Positions 6,316-34,045 of a DNA stretch of 64,000 bases are shown here, piece after piece. The position numbers and the translations under genes were made by a program. The first letter of the stretch is position 1, and each line of letters begins with the position of its first letter. The notes beneath the pieces are model-generated. The model was given only the letters and a program-made list of their open reading frames with translations, was not told the DNA's origin and did not search any database. Source of the DNA: Pirellulales bacterium (GTDB lineage Bacteria; Planctomycetota; Planctomycetia; Pirellulales; JAEUIK01); NCBI GenBank assembly GCA_050184475.1, contig JBFXAH010000011.1, positions 75,208 to 139,207 of the forward strand. The letters are read 5' to 3'.

Positions 6316-6458
6316 ATGGGCAGCCCGCGGAAACTCGATTCGAGCCAGCGGCGCCCAGGGCACGGCGATCGTGCCTGGTCGTGTCGCGGAATCTATCGCG
6401 CTCGTGCCCGGGGCTTGGGTACGTAAAACCGGTGCGACTGCATCGCGGCGTGCGCACG

Positions 6459-8711
6459 TCAGAATCGCTCGCCCGACCAGAGCCGCAACAACAGCGGCAG
6501 CAAGATCAGGTTGCCCAGCATGCCGCCGATCATCGACAAGCCCATCAGCACGCCGAAGTAGACGAGCGGCACGAACTGGCTGAAGATCAGGGCGCTAAAG
6601 CCGACGACCAGCGACAACGTCGAGAAGACCATCGCGCGGCCGGCGCTCTGGTGCACCAGATCGATCGCGGCGTAGACGCTGTTGCCGGCCCGCCGGGCGT
6701 CGAGGAACTCATAGATGTAGTGAATCGACGAATCGACGGCCAGGCCCATCGACACCGCGGCGATCATGGCCGCTCCCATGTTGATCCGCAGGTCGAACCA
6801 GCCCATTAGCCCCGAGACGACCATGATCGGCAGGGCGTTGGGGATCATGGCGATCACGGCCAACAGCACGCTACGGAAGGCCACGACCATCATCAGCCAG
6901 ATCGACGTCGTGGCGATCAAGAACGACACCCATTGATCGCGGATCATGCTGTCGATCAGGTTGGTGAGCAGCACGAAAAAGCCGGTGACGCGGGCCTCCT
7001 CGCCGAAGTGCTTGGCGCACACTTCGCGCACCTGCGATATGAGCAGGTTTTTCTGGGCCGACGGTTGGCGCTCGCGAGCCCGCAGCATGATTCGCAGGTA
7101 TTGCTGGCCGTCGAGCGGGTCGCGGCCGACGAGCGCCCCATAGGCGCCCGGCATCGTGCGGCGGAATTGATCGAGCAGTTCCTCGAGCGGCAGCAGGTTC
7201 TCCAGCGACAGGTTCGAACCGGCCAGCGCCGCCGTGAAGCTCTTGCGCATGGCGTCGAGCGTGTCGACCACGCTGAGCACCTTGGTCAGCCCCGGCACGG
7301 ATTCGCTTTGTTCGTTCAGCACCCGCACCGAGCTGCGGAGGTCGTCTTCCAAGGCCCCCACGCGTTGGAAAAACGCCGCGTCGACCTGGGCCGGCAGGGG
7401 GAGAAAGATATCCCACACGCCCGCTCCCCCCAGATTGCTCTCGACGAACTGGTAGCTGTGCACCACGGGACTCGACGCGCGGAAGTTCTTGGTGAAGTCG
7501 GTTTCGACCTCGAGCCAGCGATAGCCGATCAGCGAGACGCTGATGAACGCCATCGCCGTGAGCCCCACGGTGCGCGGCCGGCGTTCGAGCCAGTAGACGA
7601 TGTCGTGCAACCCGCGATCGAGGTTTTTTTCTCCCCAGGCGCGATGCGGATCGGCGTCGAACTTGCCGATCAGCGCGATGCCCGGCAGTACCAGCCCGAT
7701 GCACAGCAGCACCAGCACCGAGCCGATGGCCATCATCGCGCCGAAATCTTGCACCGGCCCGACCTTGGCCGCCAGCAGCGAGGCAAAGCCGGCGGTGTCG
7801 GTCAAACAGACCCAGATGATCGGCACGGTCAGCATGCTGCCGCAGGCCAGAAAAGCGCCGCGCGGCGTGGCCCCTTTCTCGCGCTCTTCGCGAAACTTGA
7901 CGATGACGTGCACCACGTGGGCGACACCAATCACGGTGATGATCGACCACAGCATGCTGCTGACCATGCTCAGCCGGAAATCGCCCAGCACCAACACCGC
8001 CTTGGTCAACCAGAGCGCGGCCACGACCACGGCCACCGGCGCGATCACCCACCGCAAGCTGCGAAAACAGAGGATGATCGTCACCATCAACAGGCCGGTC
8101 GAGACGCGCCCCAGCAGTTCGCCATCTTCTTCCAGCGAGCGAAAGCCTTCGCAGACCATCACCGGTTCGCCGGTGAGCACGCCGGTCGGATCGTGCTCGG
8201 CAACACGCTGCCGCAACAGGCCGACGGTCTGGGTGCGCTTGTTCGAGTCTTCTTCGGGGGCCAGCATGCAGACCACGGCCGCGGTCCGCCGATCCTTGCT
8301 CACCAGGTAGCCTTCGAAGACATCCAGCAGCGGCTGCAACTGGTCGGGCTTGTCGAGAAAATCAGCCACGAACGGAACCGCCGACAGGCTGAGCACGTTT
8401 TGCACGCCCGGCACCGCGGCCAAGGCATTGGTCAGGTCGCCCAGTCGGGCCAGCCCACCTGTCGTGAGTAACTGCGGATCGACGTAAGCGGCCAGCGCGA
8501 TCTCGTTGCCGCCAAAAGTACGTTTGAGCTGCTGATAGGGAACCAGCAGCGGATCGTCGGGGGCGAACATGTTCTCGACCGAGCGATCGAAGCCCAAGCG
8601 CCCCGCCGGCCGCACCGACATCAGCGTGGCGACGACCGCCGCGGCCAGCAGCGGCATCCGCCAGCGGATGAGCCCCGCGGTAATGCGCTCCGATATCGTC
8701 GTCAGCGGCAT
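6459..8711 (-). CDS. MMPL/RND-superfamily exporter (HpnN-like, two sterol-sensing-type TM bundles)
   Basis: ORF 6459..8957, trimmed to the ATG at 8711 (MPLTTISERITAGLIRWRMPLLAAAVV). Two repeated 6-TM modules separated by large loops (LLMVTIILCFRSLRWVIAPVAVVVAALW... and ...MMVVAFRSVLLAVIAMIPNALPIMVVSGLMGW), as in MMPL family transporters. Confidence 0.85.
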   Translation of the reverse strand: MPLTTISERITAGLIRWRMPLLAAAVVATLMSVRPAGRLGFDRSVENMFAPDDPLLVPYQQLKRTFGGNEIALAAYVDPQLLTTGGLARLGDLTNALAAVPGVQNVLSLSAVPFVADFLDKPDQLQPLLDVFEGYLVSKDRRTAAVVCMLAPEEDSNKRTQTVGLLRQRVAEHDPTGVLTGEPVMVCEGFRSLEEDGELLGRVSTGLLMVTIILCFRSLRWVIAPVAVVVAALWLTKAVLVLGDFRLSMVSSMLWSIITVIGVAHVVHVIVKFREEREKGATPRGAFLACGSMLTVPIIWVCLTDTAGFASLLAAKVGPVQDFGAMMAIGSVLVLLCIGLVLPGIALIGKFDADPHRAWGEKNLDRGLHDIVYWLERRPRTVGLTAMAFISVSLIGYRWLEVETDFTKNFRASSPVVHSYQFVESNLGGAGVWDIFLPLPAQVDAAFFQRVGALEDDLRSSVRVLNEQSESVPGLTKVLSVVDTLDAMRKSFTAALAGSNLSLENLLPLEELLDQFRRTMPGAYGALVGRDPLDGQQYLRIMLRARERQPSAQKNLLISQVREVCAKHFGEEARVTGFFVLLTNLIDSMIRDQWVSFLIATTSIWLMMVVAFRSVLLAVIAMIPNALPIMVVSGLMGWFDLRINMGAAMIAAVSMGLAVDSSIHYIYEFLDARRAGNSVYAAIDLVHQSAGRAMVFSTLSLVVGFSALIFSQFVPLVYFGVLMGLSMIGGMLGNLILLPLLLRLWSGERF

Positions 8712-8873
8712 GGGTGGCGGGTGGAAGTGGTCGAGCGGATAATCGAGACCATGGCGGCGGGCGGCCGGCATTTTACACGTACCTGCCACAGCAACCAACG
8801 CCCTGCAACATTTGGCAATCGCTTGAAGCTGGCTGCAAAATCCACTCCTGCCGCGGCCGATCGACGCCCGTCC

Positions 8874-17522: not shown

Positions 17523-17612
17523 TTACTTCTTCTTCTTCGCGGTCTTCTTCTTGGCGGCCTTCTTCTTGGTCGCTCCACCCTTCTTCGCAGCGGCCTTCTT
17601 CTTCTTTGCCAC
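17523..17612 (-). CDS. 29-aa lysine/alanine-rich micro-protein (H1/Hc1-tail-like), not in the ORF track
   Basis: Minus strand reads GGAGGAagaactGTG GCA AAG AAG AAG AAG GCC GCT GCG AAG AAG GGT GGA GCG ACC AAG AAG AAG GCC GCC AAG AAG AAG ACC GCG AAG AAG AAG AAG TAA, giving (M)AKKKKAAAKKGGATKKKAAKKKTAKKKK. The SD GGAGGA sits 6 nt before the GTG. The in-frame stop upstream at 17697..17699 has no earlier start after it. A terminator lies downstream. Confidence 0.5.
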   Translation of the reverse strand: MAKKKKAAAKKGGATKKKAAKKKTAKKKK

Positions 17613-19380: not shown

Positions 19381-19953
19381 TCAACGGCCGTTTGGCACGT
19401 AGCGACCGTTCACATCGTAGGGCAGATTGAGCTGGCTGTCGTTGATGCCTTGGGCTTCGGCTTCGAGCTCGCGCCAGTGCCAGGGGGGCATCGGATTGCT
19501 GTGCGACCACAGGCCGCGATGCCGGCGGCGAGCCATCCGTTCGGCGCTCGCCAGGTCGCGGCTGTAAGCGCTGGCGCGCGACTCGTCGACCAACGGCAAG
19601 CGCCAGGCCAAACCTTGATCGACCAGCTCGCGCCCCAGGTCGCGACCGTCGACCAATACGCGCCCCTCGACGCGATCATCCTTGTGCGTTCGCGTCACCT
19701 CGACAATCGCCTGCCGGCCACCGGCCCAGCGCACCAGCGACATGCGGGCATTGCCGCCATAAGGCTGCGGCATTTCGGGGGCGTCGACTCCGGACAGCCG
19801 CACGATCCGCTGCCGAGTGCCGAATTCGATCACCACCACGTCGCTGTCGGGGATATCGATCACGCGGCCCGCCAGCTCTTCGGCCAGGAGAGGACAATTG
19901 CCAAGTATCGCGCAAGACGCCACGACGAGCGCCCAACCAAGAACGGATCGCAT
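19381..19953 (-). CDS. secreted thermonuclease (SNase/TNase-like) domain protein
   Basis: Signal peptide MRSVLGWALVVASCAILG. GRVIDIPDSDVVVIEFGTRQRIVRLSGVDAPEM...GRVLVDGRDLGRELVDQGLAW matches the staphylococcal-nuclease OB-fold pattern. Confidence 0.8.
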   Translation of the reverse strand: MRSVLGWALVVASCAILGNCPLLAEELAGRVIDIPDSDVVVIEFGTRQRIVRLSGVDAPEMPQPYGGNARMSLVRWAGGRQAIVEVTRTHKDDRVEGRVLVDGRDLGRELVDQGLAWRLPLVDESRASAYSRDLASAERMARRRHRGLWSHSNPMPPWHWRELEAEAQGINDSQLNLPYDVNGRYVPNGR

Positions 19954-19980
19954 CGAAAACTATCTCCCGCTCAGGACCGC

Positions 19981-20445
19981 TTATCGTAACAGCGGTCGCA
20001 AATCGACCGGTTTCTTCGCGCCAGTCACGAATTCTACGAATAACCCGATCCTGCTCAACTCCTGCTGGATTCTGGCCTGCGAGGTTGGCGCACCTGCGGA
20101 CGAGATAATCAGGCCCTTTACTCTGGTTCGCGGTGGCCTGAACTCGGCGGGCAATCTAGGGACAACGGCTTGAAAAGTGGACGTAAGCTGGCTCGCTGCC
20201 CTCTCAAAATCTCTTCCCTTGAACTCGACAAAGATCAGCAAGGCTGCCTTCGTCCCTTCTCGATAAAAGACCAGCGCGTCGCAGACTCTGCCCTGCAGTC
20301 CCAACGCCGCACGGCACTCTTCACAATCCATGCGAAAGAACAAGATGCGTTCCGTAACGCGAGGCTCGATCCTAATGCCTACCCTGTTCTCGCTAAGGGA
20401 AGTCCCGTTGTGGAAGCAGTTCCACACCAGACTATGAAAGACCAT
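19981..20445 (-). CDS. 154-aa partner of the island ATPase; putative PD-(D/E)xK-fold nuclease with an N-terminal Cys/His cluster
   Basis: ORF 19981..20475. The ATG at 20445 (or TTG at 20475) overlaps the ATPase stop by 14 (or 44) nt. The motif RVCDALVFY-x9-ALLIFVEFKG fits the D...(D/E)xK layout. CFH...CEEC lies upstream. Low GC. No family recognised by eye. Confidence 0.5.
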   Translation of the reverse strand: MVFHSLVWNCFHNGTSLSENRVGIRIEPRVTERILFFRMDCEECRAALGLQGRVCDALVFYREGTKAALLIFVEFKGRDFERAASQLTSTFQAVVPRLPAEFRPPRTRVKGLIISSAGAPTSQARIQQELSRIGLFVEFVTGAKKPVDLRPLLR

Positions 20446-21841
20446 GTTCCCCGGCCCCGTTTTCCACGCTAGCAATCTTGGAGTACAGGTTGGCGACGTA
20501 GTCCGATTCGTCAGCGAAACTCTTCACGTCGATAATCCCATCGTCAACGATGTCCTTGACTTCGCCGTCCTCTTGGAACAAGTACGCGGCGACTTTGTCT
20601 GGGGCCAAGAAGGCGTCGGCGCTGCCGAGCTTGGTCTCGCCGGCCAGCTTGGCTTGAGCCTTGCGCGACTTTGCCCCGGCAGCCATCATGTTGTTCAAAT
20701 GATCGACAAAATACGGACTGTGCGTGGTGACGACGATCTCCAGGCCGGCGTTGACGAGCATGGCGAAAAGCTCGACAAGTTGAAGTTGGGCTTCTGGATG
20801 CGCGTTCATTTCAGGCTCGTCGATGACAAGAACGTCGCCCGGTACGGCAAGATGTCGCAGAATCATGTCGAGACCGGCGAGAGAACGGACGAGCGACGCG
20901 ACGGCGTGCATCCGCAGTTTTGGGCCATCGCTCGCGAAGTACTCGAAGGTCGCGCCGCCTTTGTCGGCGCGACTTGAGCTTACGCTTCCACCCAGTACTT
21001 GGTGCTCCAACACCGAGGAAGCGGTGTTGATTGCCGATTCTGTTAGCTTTGGACGCACATACCAGAGCAATCTCAATAGATTGATGAAATCGGCAGTTGG
21101 TTCGTTGTAGATTGCAGACAAATCACGGGTCATCGACCTTTCGAGAAAAAGGGGACTAAATGCGACGAGAGCTTTCCTTTCAGCAGGTAAAGCAATTACT
21201 CGCTGCTTCGTCGAAACGAGCATTCGACTCAGCCAGGACTCCACGGTCGCACGACCTTGATCGCGGTTAGTTGCCCCAGTGCTATCCCGCCAAGACTCAC
21301 GAAACATAGGTTCGCCTTCAGCAGTGCCGAGTGCGCTTACTGTGAGCTCCCCTGTTGGCGGGAACCTAGTTATTACTAGTCGACGGATCGTTCCGTTTTG
21401 CAGAAATTCGTCGCGCGGCAACAGCAAATCTGTGAATGACTCGCTCAGATCCTCTTCCGGAACTGCCAGCGTCCTTGCGAGTGCGGCGCCCTGAAGTTTG
21501 AGCGAAACTTCCAACGGCAATTTTAATCCGCGAAGAAGATCATCTCGAGAAACTACTACCGATATCGAGTCTTCCGACTCGGTCGCCATCGACTTCAATA
21601 CCTGAGAACTGTTGGCCGAGGTTGTCCTGTTGAGATAGTCCGCAAAAACAGAGAGTCGTGCGGTCTCGCTCCTGTACCCGACGCCGACACCAATGCTCGT
21701 CGAAATGTCCCTGAGCAGCCCATACAGCGCGTAGGCCGTCCAGGTCTTATTGGTATTGTTCTTGCCAATGAAGACCGTGAACGGCTTGATTTCCAGCTCG
21801 GCCGATTTGATCCGGCCAAGATTCGAGACTTTAAGTTTCAA
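20432..21841 (-). CDS. AAA_15/AAA_21-type ABC (SMC/OLD-like) ATPase, defence-system-type
   Basis: 469 aa. N-terminus MKLKVSNLGRIKSAELEIKPFTVFIGKNNTNKT (variant Walker A). Long insert, then the signature-like ASLVRSLAGL, Walker B VLVIDEPEMNAHP and H-loop VVTTHSPYF. TTG start. GC is clearly lower than in flanking genes. Confidence 0.85.
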   Translation of the reverse strand: MKLKVSNLGRIKSAELEIKPFTVFIGKNNTNKTWTAYALYGLLRDISTSIGVGVGYRSETARLSVFADYLNRTTSANSSQVLKSMATESEDSISVVVSRDDLLRGLKLPLEVSLKLQGAALARTLAVPEEDLSESFTDLLLPRDEFLQNGTIRRLVITRFPPTGELTVSALGTAEGEPMFRESWRDSTGATNRDQGRATVESWLSRMLVSTKQRVIALPAERKALVAFSPLFLERSMTRDLSAIYNEPTADFINLLRLLWYVRPKLTESAINTASSVLEHQVLGGSVSSSRADKGGATFEYFASDGPKLRMHAVASLVRSLAGLDMILRHLAVPGDVLVIDEPEMNAHPEAQLQLVELFAMLVNAGLEIVVTTHSPYFVDHLNNMMAAGAKSRKAQAKLAGETKLGSADAFLAPDKVAAYLFQEDGEVKDIVDDGIIDVKSFADESDYVANLYSKIASVENGAGEHGLS

Positions 21842-21990
21842 CGACCGCTCCCGGAAGCATGGGGCGTCTCGGCAAGCTGATTTGCTGGCTCTCTAAATAC
21901 TAATTCGGCATGCTGGTCGCGAACCGTGTGCCCCCCTGAGGGGCGATCCGTCGCAACCACTAGAAGTAGTTCCAAAACCGTCCAAAGCAG

Positions 21991-22041
21991 GGGGACAGTC
22001 CCATTTTGCTCGGAGTACCTTGTAAAATCGGGACAGTCCCC
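21991..22041. promoter_or_regulatory. pair of identical 11-12-bp palindromes GGGACAGTCCC in the island's upstream region (operator candidate)
   Basis: GGGGACAGTCCC at 21991..22002 and GGGACAGTCCCC at 22030..22041, spaced 39 bp start to start. They lie 150-200 bp upstream of the ATPase start on the minus strand. Confidence 0.4.
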
Positions 22042-22239
22042 GACGGATTTGAAACCGGTTCTAGAAATTACCCTGCCCAAAAAACGACTGCCGAAGTGGA
22101 CTATTCGATCGGCACGACCGTCAGACTCGCCGCCACTTCTCGATTGTAGCGCGCCAGGGGAAGCCAGTTAAACCGGCCAGCCCCAGCGTGTCCGAGCCGA
22201 CCAGCGCCAGACTGCTGGGAGTGCGAAACACTCCTTCGC

Positions 22240-23370
22240 CTAGGCGCTAGTCTCCGTAGAACACTCGGTCCCGCAGCTTCGCAGCTCGGTGGCCGGCTCG
22301 GGGTTGTGAGCCACGGTAAAGCCCAGGTCTTCGAGCATGCGGTAATCTTCGGCGGCCGGCTGCCCTTTGGTGGTCAAGTAGTCCCCCACGAACAGCGAGT
22401 TGGCGGCGTACATCCCCAGCGGCTGCAAGCTGCGCAAGTGCAACTCGCGTCCGCCGGCAATGCGAATTTCGCTCGCCGGGTTGGCCAGCCGGGCCAGGCA
22501 AAGCACCTTCAGGCAATAGCGCGGGTTCAACCGGCTGATGCCTGCCAGCGGCGTGCCCGAGATGGCGTTCAAGAAGTTGATCGGGATCGAATGCACGCCC
22601 AGCTCGCGCAAGGCAAAGACCATGTCGACGACGTCGCCGTCGCGCTCCCCCATGCCGACGATGCCGCCGGAGCACATCTCCATGCCGGCGTCGCGGACCG
22701 CCGCCAGCGTGTCGACGCGGTCCTGCCAGGTGTGCGTGGTGCAAATGTCGCCGTAATACGACTCGCTGGTGTTCAGGTTATGGTTCACGCGGTCGACGCC
22801 GGCCGCCGCCAGCCGCTGCGCTTGATCGGGACGCAGCAGCCCCAGGCAGGCACAGACCTTGAGGTTGTAGGCCGCCTTGATCTTCGGAACGATCGACTCG
22901 ATCGCCGCGACTTCGCGGTCGTTCGGGCCGCGGGCCGAGATGACGATGCAATACGTCTTGGCCTGCCGCTCGGCGGCGATGCGCGCCCCGTCCAGCAACT
23001 TCTGCTCGTCGAGCAGGTTGTAGCGCGGAATCTCGGCTTCGGAAACCTTCGACTGCGAGCAGTACGAACAGTCCTCGGGGCAGAGCCCGCTCTTGGCGTT
23101 CATCAGAAAGTAGAGCTGCACCTCGTTGCCGAAGTGCTGCCGGCGGACTCGATAGGTGGCCGCCAACAGGTCCATCAGCTCGTCGTCGGGCGAGCCGAGC
23201 ACGGCCAGCCCCTCGTCGGCCGTCAGCCGATGCCCGGCGAGCACGCGATCGGCCAGGTCGTGCCAGCGACCGCCTGGCGAGTTGCCAGCTCGCGCGGAGT
23301 CGGCGGTTGGTTCGTTGCTCTCCAAGGCTGCGGCGGCCAGGCGGTCGATCATGCCAACACGATTTTCCAA
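22240..23370 (-). CDS. bioB: biotin synthase (radical SAM)
   Basis: CPEDCSYCSQS (CxxxCxxC) radical-SAM motif. YFLMNAKSG...VISARGP...CACLG...NHNLNTS...MCSGGIVGMGE is typical of BioB. The start may instead be the internal ATG at 23352. Confidence 0.9.
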   Translation of the reverse strand: MENRVGMIDRLAAAALESNEPTADSARAGNSPGGRWHDLADRVLAGHRLTADEGLAVLGSPDDELMDLLAATYRVRRQHFGNEVQLYFLMNAKSGLCPEDCSYCSQSKVSEAEIPRYNLLDEQKLLDGARIAAERQAKTYCIVISARGPNDREVAAIESIVPKIKAAYNLKVCACLGLLRPDQAQRLAAAGVDRVNHNLNTSESYYGDICTTHTWQDRVDTLAAVRDAGMEMCSGGIVGMGERDGDVVDMVFALRELGVHSIPINFLNAISGTPLAGISRLNPRYCLKVLCLARLANPASEIRIAGGRELHLRSLQPLGMYAANSLFVGDYLTTKGQPAAEDYRMLEDLGFTVAHNPEPATELRSCGTECSTETSA

Positions 23371-29749: not shown

Positions 29750-30353
29750 CGGGCAGAGGGACGAACGCTGATGAGCTCCTATCAAAGAGCCACGGGGTGC
29801 TAATTCCGGACCAAACCGGCATGTTTTCGGGCTTGGTTTGGCCTGCACTGGCGCTAGCAGCCTGTGGAAGACACCGCAGGCGGCGCCATCGCAGGAAAGC
29901 GGGCCGCGAGCCGCGTCCGCTTACTGTAGCGCCGCGTGGGCTGTTGTCGAGCGTCGCCGGCGCAGAACTCGCCCCGCAGGGCGGAAGTCAATAGCCAGGC
30001 GGAACCCTTGGCGTAGTCGCGCCTCGCAATGTTGGCACACTAGCCCGACGCGCAGCGAGGGTCTGGGGACTAACCGGTGATGGGTTAGTCGGTCGGCGAC
30101 AACCGATTCGATTCTCTGCCGATGATCCGGCGGCGACACTCGGAGTGAAGCACTTCGTGGAGTCGCCCTTTGCAACGGCGCGTCGGCGAGGGCAAGTTAT
30201 CCCCCCTCCCCTTGTGGACTTCGACAGGCTCAGTCGAACGAAGAGGGTGGCCGGCCGACGATAGGTTGGCCTGGCTGCCCGGGCGGAGCGAAGCCAAACC
30301 GGTGAGGCCATCGGCCCGCGAGTCGTTCGACGTAGCAACGCTCGCGCGGCAGA

Positions 30354-30710
30354 ATGATTGGCATGGACGAGAAGCCCAAACACCGCTGGTTTCAGTTTCG
30401 GCTGAGCACGTGGTTCGTGCTGGTGGCGATTCTCGCCTGGGTGATGGCGCTTTGGCCGTACTTTGATGAGTTCGAAGTGCTTGTGGAGTTGACCAAGGCC
30501 ACGGTTCGTCCCAGCACAGGCTGGATCGATCCGCCATACGACATTCCGTACGGGGGACTCGGCCAATTCCTTTGGTTTTGGAAGCTAAAACTGTCGGTTG
30601 AGCAACTTGAGTGGCCGGCCGTCGCCTTAGCCGCCTTCCTCGCCTGGAAAGCCGCCTGGGCGCTCGGCCCGCGAGTTGTTCGACGCCGCAGGGCCCGCAC
30701 GGCAGAATGA
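30354..30710 (+). CDS. hypothetical membrane-anchored protein (leader-family gene 1)
   Basis: MIGMDEKPKHRWFQFRLSTWFVLVAILAWVMALW. Shares the upstream leader and N-terminal anchor motif with the next three genes. Lower GC. Confidence 0.5.
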   Translation: MIGMDEKPKHRWFQFRLSTWFVLVAILAWVMALWPYFDEFEVLVELTKATVRPSTGWIDPPYDIPYGGLGQFLWFWKLKLSVEQLEWPAVALAAFLAWKAAWALGPRVVRRRRARTAE

Positions 30711-31666
30711 ATGGCATGAATGTGCAAACGCAAAAGCGCCGACTTCGGTACACGTTGCGGGCGCTGCTCGCCGCGCTGACGGCCGTTTGTCTTCTGCTCG
30801 GTTGGTGGTCGAACAACGTCTACCGCCAACAGCGCGCCGCGGCGACCCTCCGGTCGTTGGGGATTCACGTGGGCTACGAATCGGCTCCAACCGTGTTGAC
30901 GTTTCCGGTTCCGGCCTGGTTTGGCAATCGGATCGGCACTGATTTTTTCCAAAAGGTCGTCGGTGTCGAGCAGGTCAGGAGCAATCGGGCCGCGAAAGCC
31001 AGGGAAGTGGTTCCGGCGCTTCGAGAGTTTCCCGCCCTGACGTCGCTACGTTTGATGCTCCCAGACCTGACTGATTCCGACATCCAGACGATCGGAGCTC
31101 TGCAAGAACTCAGGTCCTTATCACTCGTCGTTGATCAAGCACACCAGGGGCAGAACAACGCCCGCCTGCGATTGGCCGACCTACGCGGCCTCGCGAAACT
31201 CAGATCACTCACGATATCTGGGTGGTCCATCGGCCGAGAAGATGTCGTTGTTATCAGTCGCTTGCCAAAGCTGTCGGAGCTGTCGTTGATCGACACGGAT
31301 GCCACCGACGATACCTTGGCAGCACTTGGCGACCTGCCGCAGCTCACATCGCTATCCATTGGAGGCCGCAACAGGATCACGGATCAGGGGCTGGCACACG
31401 TCGCCAGCTTGACCTCTCTCTATCGATTGGTTGTCGACTGTCCCCAAGCAACGCCGGTCGGTATCGAACCGTTGTTGAATTTGCACAATCTCGAGTCCCT
31501 TGAGATCGACGTCCGTTCCAGCTCGAGCGTCGAATGGAACCGAGCGCTGCTGGCACGCTTTGAAGAAGCGCTGCCCAATTGCGAGCGGCGCTGGAGCATG
31601 CCTTGGTGGTTCTGGCGAGACAACGACTCGATGCCGGAAATCGCTCCGTTTGACTCCATCGACTAA
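30707..31666 (+). CDS. membrane-anchored leucine-rich-repeat (RNI-like LRR) protein (leader-family gene 2)
   Basis: The ATG at 30707 overlaps the gene 1 stop (ATGA). MNGMNVQTQKRRLRYTLRALLAALTAVCLLLGWW. Repeated LxxLxxLxL units follow (LTSLRLMLPDLTDSDIQTIGALQELRSLSL, LAKLRSLTISG, LPKLSELSLIDTDATDDTLAALGDLPQLTSLSIGG, LTSLYRLVV). Confidence 0.7.
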   Translation: MNGMNVQTQKRRLRYTLRALLAALTAVCLLLGWWSNNVYRQQRAAATLRSLGIHVGYESAPTVLTFPVPAWFGNRIGTDFFQKVVGVEQVRSNRAAKAREVVPALREFPALTSLRLMLPDLTDSDIQTIGALQELRSLSLVVDQAHQGQNNARLRLADLRGLAKLRSLTISGWSIGREDVVVISRLPKLSELSLIDTDATDDTLAALGDLPQLTSLSIGGRNRITDQGLAHVASLTSLYRLVVDCPQATPVGIEPLLNLHNLESLEIDVRSSSSVEWNRALLARFEEALPNCERRWSMPWWFWRDNDSMPEIAPFDSID

Positions 31667-31737
31667 CGCCGGACGCTCGATCCACCGAATACGCCGGTTG
31701 CAGAGCTCGGCGCCACTGCCGCGGCAGAAAGACGCGC

Positions 31738-32157
31738 ATGGCCGATCCACCCAAACGCCCCTGGTTGCAGTTTCGCTTACGCGACGCGTTCATCGCCGTG
31801 ACGGTTGCAAGCGTCGTCGGCGCAACGGTGCAGGCACTGGGAGTGCGCTATTCGATTCACATCAGCATGGGAATCGGCGCATTGGCGACGATCTGGCTGA
31901 GCCCGCGCTCGTTTCTTGCTTTGAGCAGTCTAAGTGCGGTCGGAACCGCTGTTGCTGGGTTGCTGGCATGCTTCGCAGTATTCTTGTCGGCCCCAGGCAA
32001 CTGGCCTATGGGATGGCTGCCATTCGCCAGCGTTGGAATTGTAGGTGTCGTCGCCGGAGCGCTCCTTGGCGCTATCGCCTGGGGTCTGTTCTCCGCTAAG
32101 GCTGCGCTCGAAACCGCGGCCAAACCCGCCGCGCAACGTGGGCGGTTGGCCGACTAG
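31738..32157 (+). CDS. hypothetical polytopic membrane protein (leader-family gene 3)
   Basis: MADPPKRPWLQFRLRDAFIAVTVASVVGATV. Has 3-4 hydrophobic segments and shares the leader/anchor motif. Confidence 0.5.
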   Translation: MADPPKRPWLQFRLRDAFIAVTVASVVGATVQALGVRYSIHISMGIGALATIWLSPRSFLALSSLSAVGTAVAGLLACFAVFLSAPGNWPMGWLPFASVGIVGVVAGALLGAIAWGLFSAKAALETAAKPAAQRGRLAD

Positions 32158-32187
32158 GGATGCGCCGTGTTGCAGCGGCGCGGCGGA

Positions 32188-33455
32188 ATGACAAGCATGC
32201 ACGGGAAGCTGCCGAGGCTGCGACCGGTATTTTCGCTACGCACCTTGGTGCTGGCAATCGCGCTGGCAGCGTGCGTGTTCGGTTTGCCGCAAGGGAAGCC
32301 ACCCTGGGAGTTGGGCTTCACGATAAAGGGAGATTTCAGCGACGCGTCATTCTCGCCCGACAGGCGGATGTTGGCGGCGACCTATCGCTGGGAACCACAG
32401 CTCATGGTTTGCGACGCCCGCTCGGGCAAGGAGCTGTACTTGCTGGGCGATCGGTTGCTTTCCCGCCATGGCGGAGCGGCAAGTCAACGCACCTGCTTTC
32501 TCGATTCGAACTCGCTGGTGTTTCTTTGCGGCGAGAAGGGGGAGCTGCAACTCTGGGATTTGACGGCCAAACGCTTACTCGATCAGGCCGATTTGGGCGT
32601 AATCGAGGGTTTCTGCGCGAAGACGGGGCGGGCGGTCACGCATCCCGCAGGTGATCAGTCCAATGACGTTTGGGATCTCACGACGACGAAGTCACTTTTA
32701 AGGCGCCAGAAGGTTGACGTTGGCGATCATGCATACTGGGCGACTTTCAGTGACGACGGTTCGTCACTGCTAGTGCAAACGCGAAACCAGTTCGCTTGGG
32801 TTCCGCTGGAAAGCGACGCGCCCATCGAGTACTTCGATATACGGCGAAAGCCGGACTATCGCGGCCATGTGTCGATCGCGCCGAAGCACGACAGGTTTGT
32901 CGCCTGTGATTCGAGTGGAGCCTATCTATATGAACGTGGCAGGCTGCAAACGGTGCGGAAATTGACGACCTCCGCTTGCCAACAGAGTGCGTTCAGTCCC
33001 GACTCACGCCAATTGGCCATCGCTCAAAGCGGAAACGGTGCGAGTCGTGCAGGGGGCATTCAGATTGTCGGTTTGGACTCAGGTCGATCGCTATTTGTCG
33101 ATCGCGGCGCAATTGTGTTAGCGTCCAGTTCAATAGTTCGGGGTCCCGAATACTAGGGTACGGAAATGATCGCTGGTTTGTGCTCGACGCTGCTACTGGA
33201 AAAACGCTTCATGAATCGTCTCTCCTGGGGAAGGCGGGCTACCCAGTCCTGAGTCCTGTCAAAATGACGAACGACGGCAAAACAGTAGCGTTCATCGGCG
33301 ACTCTGAGCTCAACGTCTGGCATCGCAACTATCCTGAGCACTGGCAACCTTGGTTTCGCGGGCTCTATTTTGCGCTGACTGGCCTGGCGGCACTGGCGTT
33401 CGTGGTCAGCCTGGTGATCGACCATCGTCGTGGACGGGCGCATCGCGGCCTGTGA
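32188..33455 (+). pseudogene. membrane-anchored WD40-like beta-propeller protein, apparently frameshifted near 33105..33122 (leader-family gene 4)
   Basis: Frame 1 (to the stop at 33156) contains WD-like blades (ASFSPDRRMLAA, LQLWDLTAKRLL, ATFSDDGSSLLV, SAFSPDSRQLAIA). The -1 frame (ORF 32976..33455) continues with VSVQFNSSGSRILGYGNDRWFVLDAATGKTLH...NDGKTVAFIGDSELNVWH and a C-terminal TM segment. Confidence 0.55.
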
Positions 33456-33708
33456 ACGGTGCATGCAGCAATCCGCCAAACGCCCGGGTGACCGCGCTTG
33501 TCGTGGGCAGGAATTCACTATCCTCAAATTTCTCAGATTACGCAGATGAGTTGCTCGCGGACTCGTCTGCTTTGGCAATCTGCGTTAATCGGCGAAATCT
33601 GCGGACCACAAAGCTGCATTTCTTTGCGACTTGGCGACTTGGCGCGAGATCCACGTTCCTTCGCGCGGCGAGATCGCCTCTGTCCCTGCTGCCCATACCC
33701 CAACACAC

Positions 33709-34045
33709 CCGAGCGGTGGCAATCCGGCCCCGAGTTGTGCCGTCTATTCGAGTTCAGGTCCAATAACAAGACACCAGGACGCAAATGGTTGACCCGGACG
33801 CAAACCGGACGGTCACCCGGACGCAAATCGAGCTGCGAGTTTCATGCCCCGCGTTGTGCCGTGTAACTTGAGTTCGGGTCCAATACCAAGACACCCGGAC
33901 GCAAATGGCTGACCCGGACGCAAACCGGACGGTCACCCGGACGCAAAACCAGCGGCGTGTTACACGCCCCAAGTTGTGCCGCCGATTCGAGTTCGGGTCC
34001 AATACCAAGACACCCGGACGCACCCGGACGCAAAATTACGGACCA
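33709..34045 (+). repeat. tandem repeat, ~120-bp unit x ~2.7, containing a nested 13-mer ACCCGGACGCAAA array
   Basis: Units start with GTTGTGCCG at 33734, 33853 and 33973 (periods 119 and 120). There are 8 copies of CC(C/A)GGACGCA, plus 2 CCGGACGG and 1 ACGGACC. It lies in an ~800-bp gene-free gap. Confidence 0.9.

Follow-up and report, generated by a model that had tools for sequence, protein, structure and literature searches.

Is a gene pair that stands out by its low guanine-plus-cytosine (GC) content in a Pirellulales genome an undescribed defence system, or one more instance of a system that already has a name? The question arises from a 64,000-nucleotide stretch of contig JBFXAH010000011.1 (hereafter the window), in which two minus-strand genes, coding for an ATPase (A subunit) and a small partner protein (B subunit), are lodged between bioB and a gene for an SNase-like protein. 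A first-pass annotation, made from the letters and translations alone, had read the pair as an undescribed defence-type system with a new effector combination. The comparisons reported here indicate instead that it is very likely a defence cassette of the family that unites WonAB with the 'OLD-ABC ATPase + novel REase' operons. This family has been described before, its catalogue takes in Planctomycetes, and part of it has been characterised by experiment.

WonAB was found on the WASA-1 prophage of V. cholerae and consists of an OLD-type ATP-binding cassette (ABC) ATPase and a 16.1-kDa 'variant PD-(D/E)xK' nuclease (Adams et al. 2025, PMC12137116). The same authors relate it to PD-T4-4 and to the operon named 'OLD-ABC ATPase + novel REase' (REase, restriction endonuclease), which was recognised in silico by Krishnan et al. 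2020, as cited in PMC12137116, and is reported from 0.96% of RefSeq genomes (Supplementary Table 5 of Adams et al. 2025, PMC12137116). PD-T4-4 of E. coli ECOR58 is a validated defence system described as 'ATPase, nuclease', whose open reading frames (ORFs) span 1,973 bp (Vassallo et al. 2022, PMC9519451). The HHpred table of that paper gives AAA_15 for its A subunit and weak UL24, Endonuc_Holl, PDDEXK_9 and HSDR_N matches for its B subunit, and later papers present PD-T4-4 as a system of a PD-(D/E)xK nuclease and a P-loop/ABC nucleoside triphosphatase (NTPase).

Results

Both proteins match published members of the WonAB family

The window proteins were compared by BLASTP with the sequences in the supplementary tables of Adams et al. 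2025, where the ATPase sequences span ~399 aa and leave the C-terminal tail outside the comparison. Both proteins of Corallococcus coralloides listed as 'Novel REase' and 'OLD-ABC ATPase' are clear relatives of the window pair, with 33% identity over 132 aa for the partner (E 1e-18) and 35% over 433 columns for the ATPase (E 7e-56). The 'Novel REase' of Nostoc PCC 7524 matches the partner over its full length (E 2e-14). Within the Planctomycetes, the 'WonB' and 'WonA' hits of Maioricimonas rarisocia show 33% identity over 144 aa (E 4e-15) and 31% over 430 columns (E 6e-46), respectively. Similarity to V. cholerae WonB itself is detected by BLASTP over 38 aa (37%, E 5e-6) and by profile alignment (hhalign 96.3%, E 1.6e-9), in which D56, E74 and K76 of the partner align to D53, E69 and K71 of WonB. 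On the ATPase side, the spacing of the motifs is collinear, K34/R182/E300/H333 of WonA corresponding to K32/R222/E342/H374 in the window.

The organisation of the pair agrees with these matches. As in WonAB, the A gene precedes the B gene, A is an OLD-type ABC ATPase with the same order and spacing of motifs, and B is a nuclease of ~140-165 aa with the pattern CD...E-L/F-K-G...Q. The window pair differs from WonAB by the distinct N-terminus of its clade's B subunit (MxFxxLVWNC...) with conserved E32 and D40, by ~40 additional ATPase residues between Walker A and the PAER motif (Insert 1), and by its setting, since the host is a high-GC planctomycete and the cassette does not lie on a prophage. 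The 'OLD-ABC ATPase + novel REase' operon has the same architecture and the same conserved motifs as the window pair, with no architectural difference. The locus thus displays the ABC motifs, the homology of A, the homology of a small B, the D/ExK residues and the adjacent co-directional operon that characterise the family; membership is inferred from similarity to sequences found by the MacSyFinder models of Adams et al. The proposal of a new effector combination does not withstand these results, as both proteins match published hit lists with E values between 1e-14 and 1e-56, and profile as well as pairwise searches put the pair in an already named family, an outcome that the first-pass annotation had itself named as fatal to its proposal. 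The pairing had looked new because PD-T4-4 and WonAB were missing from the known systems listed by that reader.

The A subunit is an OLD/SMC-type ABC ATPase

The larger protein belongs to the AAA_15/AAA_21 group of OLD/SMC-type ABC ATPases, with Pfam matches to AAA_15 (4.5e-19) and AAA_21 (2.6e-10) that are both above cut-off. In an alignment with 42 full-length homologues (31-41% identity), Walker A (G26/K32/T33), the signature (S316/R319/G323), Walker B (D341/E342) and the H-loop (H374) are invariant or at least 90% conserved, and the same holds for the PAER motif (P219-A-E-R222) and for E344. The AlphaFold2 model (predicted local distance difference test, pLDDT, 87.8; predicted template modelling score, pTM, 0.90) consists of an ATPase head and a short C-terminal extension of ~80 aa, and no fused nuclease domain is present in the 469 residues. 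Foldseek searches with this model retrieved PtuA of Septu and retron systems as the best matches, followed by SMC and Rad50 heads (E ~1e-9). By sequence, the ATPase comes closest among solved proteins to an OLD-family nuclease and to PtuA, and it does so solely in the C-terminal ABC motifs. Pfam, PADLOC, sequence comparison with the PDB and Foldseek therefore all agree with the family originally assigned to the ATPase, and its motifs stand at the positions first given for them.

Among the PADLOC profiles, PD-T4-4_A matched the ATPase best (PDLC04033, 2.4e-48, 163.5 bits; PDLC04032, 2.2e-32), followed by PDC-M47A (1.9e-40), with AriA, Old, GajA and PtuA far lower; PD-T4-4_A is also the top PADLOC match of all 42 members of the ATPase clade. 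NCBIfam matches to named families remained far below their cut-offs. The window pair shares with Septu (PtuAB), Gabija (GajAB), PARIS (AriAB) and OLD or retron PtuA an ABC ATPase of the same superfamily that senses for, or regulates, a nuclease effector. Its likeness to these systems is nevertheless restricted to the C-terminal ABC motifs (E ~1e-9), and its effector is a small stand-alone PD-(D/E)xK protein rather than an HNH (PtuB), TOPRIM (GajA, OLD) or DUF4435 (AriB) protein.

The B subunit is a candidate PD-(D/E)xK nuclease

Alignment to homologues fixes the start of the partner at the ATG at 20445 and not at the TTG at 20475, and a gene caller run independently on two other assemblies called both genes in the same way. 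Neither Pfam nor NCBIfam matched the partner, and Pfam gave nothing significant on 103 members of its family. The earlier statement that the partner has no HNH, TOPRIM or DUF4435 domain holds, since Pfam found none of them, nor any other domain, and PADLOC returned no match to PtuB, AriB or TOPRIM models. A word-indexed protein search recovered only the partner itself, which proved to be a sensitivity artefact: when 1.84 billion cluster representatives were scanned exhaustively with HMMER, 263 relatives emerged at E<=1e-3, of which 42 reached E<=1e-10, and nearly all had 150-170 aa and aligned from end to end.

In the alignment of 103 of these sequences (A2), from which the profile aligned to WonB was built, D40, D56 and E74 are invariant, and at E32, F37, L75, K76, A83 and Q86 conservation is 90% or more. 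The AlphaFold2 model of the partner (pLDDT 95.6, pTM 0.91) places D56 at the opening of one beta-strand and E74-x-K76 at the close of the next, after which comes a long helix that carries Q86; as modelled, this layout is the classic PD-(D/E)xK arrangement. Foldseek searches with the model against PDB and BFVD gave nothing at E<=0.001 (best E 0.018), and a PDB sequence search with the partner profile gave nothing meaningful. The top structural matches are nearly all proteins of the restriction-endonuclease fold, among them MUS81, the cleavage domain of FokI, BsmI, N.BspD6I/R.BspD6I, the nuclease domain of Avs4, XisH, Card1 and UL24 of herpesviruses. Because these matches are weak (E>=0.018), although the top ones point almost uniformly to one fold, a restriction-endonuclease fold of the modelled partner is supported, not proven. 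D56, E74 and K76 are the predicted catalytic residues of this candidate nuclease. The D...ExK pattern noticed at first reading is thereby borne out by conservation, by the layout of the model and by the weak fold matches together. The features of the locus are collected in Table 1.

Table 1. Features of the cassette and its surroundings in the window. L084 is the closest relative found for the locus.
Feature	Positions	Strand	Remarks
B subunit, 154-aa candidate nuclease of restriction-endonuclease-fold PD-(D/E)xK type (WonB / 'novel REase'-like)	19981..20445	-	ORF
A subunit, 469-aa OLD/SMC-type ABC ATPase (WonA / PD-T4-4_A-like)	20432..21841	-	ORF; TTG start; GGGAG ribosome-binding site
Overlap of ATPase stop and partner start, 14 nt	20432..20445	-	TAG 20434-20432; ATG 20445 preceded by GGGGA
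Non-coding leader, 398 bp, bioB stop to ATPase start	21842..22239	-	Part of insert; no homology to the L084 spacer
Composite palindrome GGGACTGTCCC-GATTTT...CAAAAT-GGGACTGTCCC	21991..22041	-	One long hairpin
Segment without DNA homology to L084	19889..22261		2,373 bp, against 227 bp in L084; net gain ~2.1 kb

The two genes form a conserved module

The extent of the gene overlap, first put at 14-44 nt, is now settled at its lower value, which fits a tight coupling of the two minus-strand genes; from this arrangement, translational coupling is probable. The three closest ATPase homologues all have a clear partner homologue downstream, which the gene caller had left uncalled in one of them (locus L001). 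For a wider view, six-frame ORFs of 80 metagenomic loci with ATPase relatives were searched with both protein profiles, and loci were counted where at least 450 bp were available downstream. An adjacent partner on the same strand was present in 26 of the 30 loci of the close clade (ATPase profile score >=200), in 11 of 15 intermediate loci and in 16 of 26 distant ones. On four long contigs, the ATPase gene is followed in each case by a gene of 157-180 aa without Pfam match (4/4), and the A-to-B junctions range from -11 to +44 nt across 28 related loci. The pair is a conserved module of adjacent same-strand genes, A then B, which recurs in many phyla with a sporadic distribution.

Loci without the standard partner carry a different downstream gene, as observed beside the ATPases of intermediate similarity in L042, L037, L040 and L043. 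The overlapping downstream gene of L042 (2306-3214) codes for 302 aa and keeps the motif PDY...IEMKG, which suggests a longer variant nuclease. This agrees with the published mention of 'a distinct nuclease' in some operons.

The cassette was inserted between two host genes

In 300-nt windows, GC is 0.51-0.58 over ~19950-22200 and 0.65-0.70 on either side; the two coding genes together have a GC of 0.547 and the 3-kb flanks 0.66-0.67. At 1-kb resolution, the cassette region is the lowest trough of all 64 kb. The drop in GC noted at first reading is correct in its direction and borders, but the hand counts that went with it (40-50% inside and 77% for bioB) exaggerated the contrast.

The closest relative was sought with the BioB protein of the window among one genome per species (GTDB). 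It is a metagenome-assembled genome (MAG) of an uncultured Planctomycetaceae with 87% BioB identity (L084), where the gene order ruvX-psp1-bioB-SNase-beta-lactamase-like is the same as in the window and both the ATPase and the partner are absent. According to blastn breakpoints and junction alignments, DNA homology between the two genomes extends from bioB as far as position 22262 and begins again at 19888, within the signal peptide of the SNase gene. The insertion stands wholly inside the bioB-SNase intergenic spacer (19954-22239), and the genes on both sides are common to both genomes. Since only an empty spacer of ~200 bp separates bioB from the SNase gene in L084, the segment is a true insertion that was horizontally acquired. 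The presence/absence comparison that the first-pass annotation had called for, and the GC of the cassette, which is below that of both flanks, bear out the horizontal origin that it had proposed. The SNase-like gene (19381-19953, minus strand; Pfam SNase 6.9e-14; N-terminal hydrophobic region resembling a signal peptide) codes for a nuclease but does not belong to the system: it is a conserved host gene that adjoins bioB in L084 without the cassette. An ATPase fragment 99% identical to that of the window is annotated from a Pirellulales MAG, and two other assemblies carry an identical island beside the same SNase and beta-lactamase-like genes.

A tRNA scan of the window found none, Rfam gave no match on the island or on the whole window, and a search for border repeats or a target-site duplication produced short, imperfect matches at chance level, none of them convincing; the earlier remark on a lack of tRNA and direct repeats is in line with this. 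A 16-nt pair at 19824/22103 was discarded as a border repeat, being 81% identical with one copy within conserved host sequence. No integrase was noted beside the insert, in a search that did not take in every ORF of the window; the flanking genes on both sides are those shared with L084.

Low GC is not peculiar to this locus. Among the loci with enough flanking sequence (drawn from L001, L013-L031 and L164-L167), the cassette is below both flanks in 17 out of 17, by 0.11 on average, in hosts of ~40%-70% GC. Because the deficit is found in all of them, it belongs to the cassette family as a whole. In many of these loci, the cassette stands alone among housekeeping genes: in L166 it interrupts the genes for histidine biosynthesis between hisD and hisC-hisB, and in L167 it adjoins pyrB/pyrC. 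No integrase was called within the 6-10 kb of flanks fetched around such lone cassettes. In L164 and L003, the cassette lies within phage-like regions or regions resembling mobile genetic elements (MGEs). The L164 region also holds, 1.2 kb upstream of the cassette, a second and different AAA_21/AAA_15 ATPase gene (594 aa) with a 198-aa gene downstream (6362-8825); with its many small ORFs without Pfam match and an HTH_3 gene, it resembles a defence islet on a mobile element.

Profile-based detection misses the B subunit

The members of the partner family were scanned one by one against PADLOC-DB v2.0.0. Of the 103 sequences, 42 matched PDC-M29B (best 5.8e-8), ten PD-T4-4_B (best 2.4e-5), ten PDC-M47B and four the generic PD-DExK model (PD_DExK). 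These member-by-member matches put the partner in the same superfamily of B nucleases, in a clade that the models cover poorly. With ten distant partner ORFs, the sole PADLOC matches were weak ones to PDC-M29B, which offered no bridge to PD-T4-4_B.

The window pair resembles PD-T4-4, PDC-M47 and PDC-M29 in that its ATPase matches PD-T4-4_A and then PDC-M47A best and that the operon has two genes over ~1.9-2.0 kb; the B subunit of PD-T4-4 is likewise a PD-(D/E)xK protein that profile methods see only weakly. It differs from PD-T4-4 and PDC-M47 in that its B subunit is recognised by neither the PD-T4-4_B nor the PDC-M47B model and is marginal to PDC-M29B (0.024). For the PD-T4-4 definition of PADLOC, the A profile finds its protein at this locus and the B profile does not, and PADLOC would probably call no system here. 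Since the best families for A (PD-T4-4/PDC-M47) and for B (PDC-M29) disagree, tools that need both genes probably miss such loci.

Discussion

Alternative readings of the pair

Several observations weigh against the assignment to the WonAB/OLD-ABC+REase family. Likeness to WonB proper is confined to a catalytic core of ~65 residues; the partner itself matches no PADLOC B model at E<=0.01 (PDC-M29B at 0.024, no PD-T4-4_B at E<=1); the cassette of the window lies in no recognisable defence island, its neighbours being housekeeping genes; and complex formation, trigger and substrate are all drawn by analogy. The closest competitor would make the pair a strict PD-T4-4 system, of the same family as that of E. 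coli ECOR58 and not a relative of WonAB and the novel REase. The unanimous top rank of PD-T4-4_A among the ATPases of the clade speaks for it, as do the similar operon sizes (1,973 bp for PD-T4-4 and 1,861 bp in the window) and the same kind of weak matches (UL24, HSDR_N and PDDEXK) that HHpred gives for PD-T4-4B over a short motif region. This is quite unlikely given the partner, which has no PD-T4-4_B match at E<=1 and whose family reaches that model weakly in ten members against 42 for PDC-M29B; moreover, its full-length matches go to the 'Novel REase' and 'WonB' lists, PD-T4-4_B being compared by profile. A truly undescribed system, in which an OLD-like ATPase has acquired a new effector partner, could appeal to a partner that Pfam, NCBIfam and PADLOC do not significantly match, that finds only itself in a word-indexed search and that has no significant structural match in PDB or BFVD. 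It is highly improbable in view of the 263 relatives recovered by HMMER, of a clade already listed as 'Novel REase' or 'WonB' (E 1e-14 to 1e-18), of the alignment of the partner profile to the WonB catalytic core and of an ATPase + nuclease architecture that has been in print since 2020-2022.

Other readings concern the role of the pair rather than its kinship. An overlapping, mobile, low-GC cassette of two genes that often stands alone among housekeeping genes could be a selfish addiction module akin to toxin-antitoxin (TA) systems, with a nuclease toxin, an ATPase neutraliser and post-segregational killing; the Pfam name of AAA_21 even cites an 'AbiEii toxin, type IV TA system', and overproduced WonB is toxic. 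We nevertheless hold this to be very unlikely. WonB does no harm in a wonAB deletion strain and is toxic only where WonA is present and active as an ATPase, so that simple sequestration is ruled out, and relatives give measurable phage defence; the two roles are compatible. The resemblance of the ATPase model to SMC and Rad50 heads might also evoke a housekeeping pair for DNA repair or chromosome maintenance, in which an ABC ATPase of the RecF/RecN/SbcCD kind would act with a nuclease. Such a role is barely credible for genes that are missing from the closest relative at a conserved locus, are atypical in GC here and in 17/17 other loci and are sporadic across phyla, all the more since the best profile matches of the ATPase are all to defence-system ATPases and NCBIfam matches fall far below cut-offs. 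Lastly, the clade of the window, with its MxFxxLVWNC N-terminus and the extra acidic residues E32/D40, might be a functionally distinct branch of the WonAB superfamily that PADLOC B models miss and that spreads as a bare ~2-kb cassette into housekeeping spacers without integrase or target-site duplication. This is unlikely as a whole; its spread would be independent of integrase, for instance by homology-facilitated replacement or nuclease-assisted insertion, and, if true, could explain the ~11-point GC deficit in 17/17 hosts of 40-70% GC. We retain the WonAB/OLD-ABC+REase assignment.

Proposed function

WonAB confers an abortive-infection defence that is independent of lysis and that needs the ATPase motifs as well as K71 of WonB (PMC12137116). 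When overproduced, WonB is toxic only together with WonA and its ATPase activity and is harmless in a wonAB deletion strain, and activation of the system shuts off translation and leaves genomic DNA intact (PMC12137116). In the window, both genes are intact and all ATPase and predicted nuclease catalytic residues are conserved. By homology with WonAB, a defence-type function of the pair is likely, as the first-pass annotation had supposed. On the same analogy, and from established ABC-ATPase biology, the ATPase would dimerise head to head around two ATP molecules, and the small PD-(D/E)xK nuclease would dock on its C-terminal extensions, where it would be held inactive or unstable. A phage-derived cue, sensed via the variable inserts of the ATPase, might then trigger an ATP-dependent activation, upon which the nuclease would cleave nucleic acid and abort the infection. 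Mutating the ATPase motifs or the nuclease lysine would be expected to abolish defence, and the nuclease should be toxic only beside an active ATPase. Because WonAB arrests translation without degrading chromosomal DNA, the analogy suggests rRNA or tRNA as the target; a DNA target is possible, related 'nuclease-NTPase' systems being generally treated as DNA-cleaving.

Significance

The practical value of this assignment is modest, as it opens no new class of system and adds a new instance of a known family in an uncultured Pirellulales genome. As far as we know, phage defence in this phylum has seen little experimental study. The locus records a clean natural acquisition of a WonAB-type cassette within Pirellulales, the site being empty in the nearest relative. 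Besides, it exposes a detection gap: PADLOC sees A and misses the B subunit of the clade, and profile-based finders that need both probably under-count the family. A hidden Markov model built from the partner alignment A2 would close this gap. As full-length homologues of the clade are found in Planctomycetota, Myxococcota and Cyanobacteria, it could also be used to ask whether the translation-arrest mechanism proposed for WonAB is general.

The leader and other low-GC regions of the window

The leader contains a sigma-70-like site, TTAACT-17-TACAAT, at 22171-22143. An ORF of 80 aa (21838-22080) matches no family and probably is not a real gene. The 'paired palindromes' reported upstream of the operon are confirmed as two exact copies of GGGACAGTCCC (at 21992 and 22030), of which 0.13 would be expected in 64 kb against the two found, and together they make one hairpin. 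Its RNA fold has -26.4 kcal/mol (z -3.55), and none of 200 shuffles was equally stable. A similar composite (GGGACTGTCCC-NTTTT...AAAAN-GGGACTGTCCC) stands in L001 (3015-3082) within a called AMP-binding gene of host-like GC, and single half-sites of the palindrome were seen in L007, L111 (just upstream of bioB) and L148. An operator specific to the operon was rejected, the L001 composite being placed in a host-GC coding gene ~0.9 kb from the ATPase; the element may be lineage-specific in Pirellulales, of the kind of repetitive extragenic palindromes (REP) or miniature inverted-repeat transposable elements (MITE). A T-run hairpin at ~22075-22120 was likewise not retained as a confident terminator, since it folds no better than shuffled sequence (z +0.40).

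Elsewhere in the window, a second, milder GC trough (0.58-0.62) at 30000-34000 holds genes for a leucine-rich repeat (LRR) protein (30611-31666) and a borderline PD40-repeat protein (32167-33156), and no defence-related Pfam family was matched within it. A further dip at 17.3-18.1 kb contains a lysine-rich ORF of 29 codons, VAKKKKAAAKKGGATKKKAAKKKTAKKKK*, on the minus strand (17523-17612); it has a ribosome-binding site, AGGAGG, and a GC-rich hairpin and a T-run come after it. The region of this ORF has 73% DNA identity in L084 and, because it is conserved there, is not an island; the ORF may code for a small basic peptide resembling a histone H1 tail.

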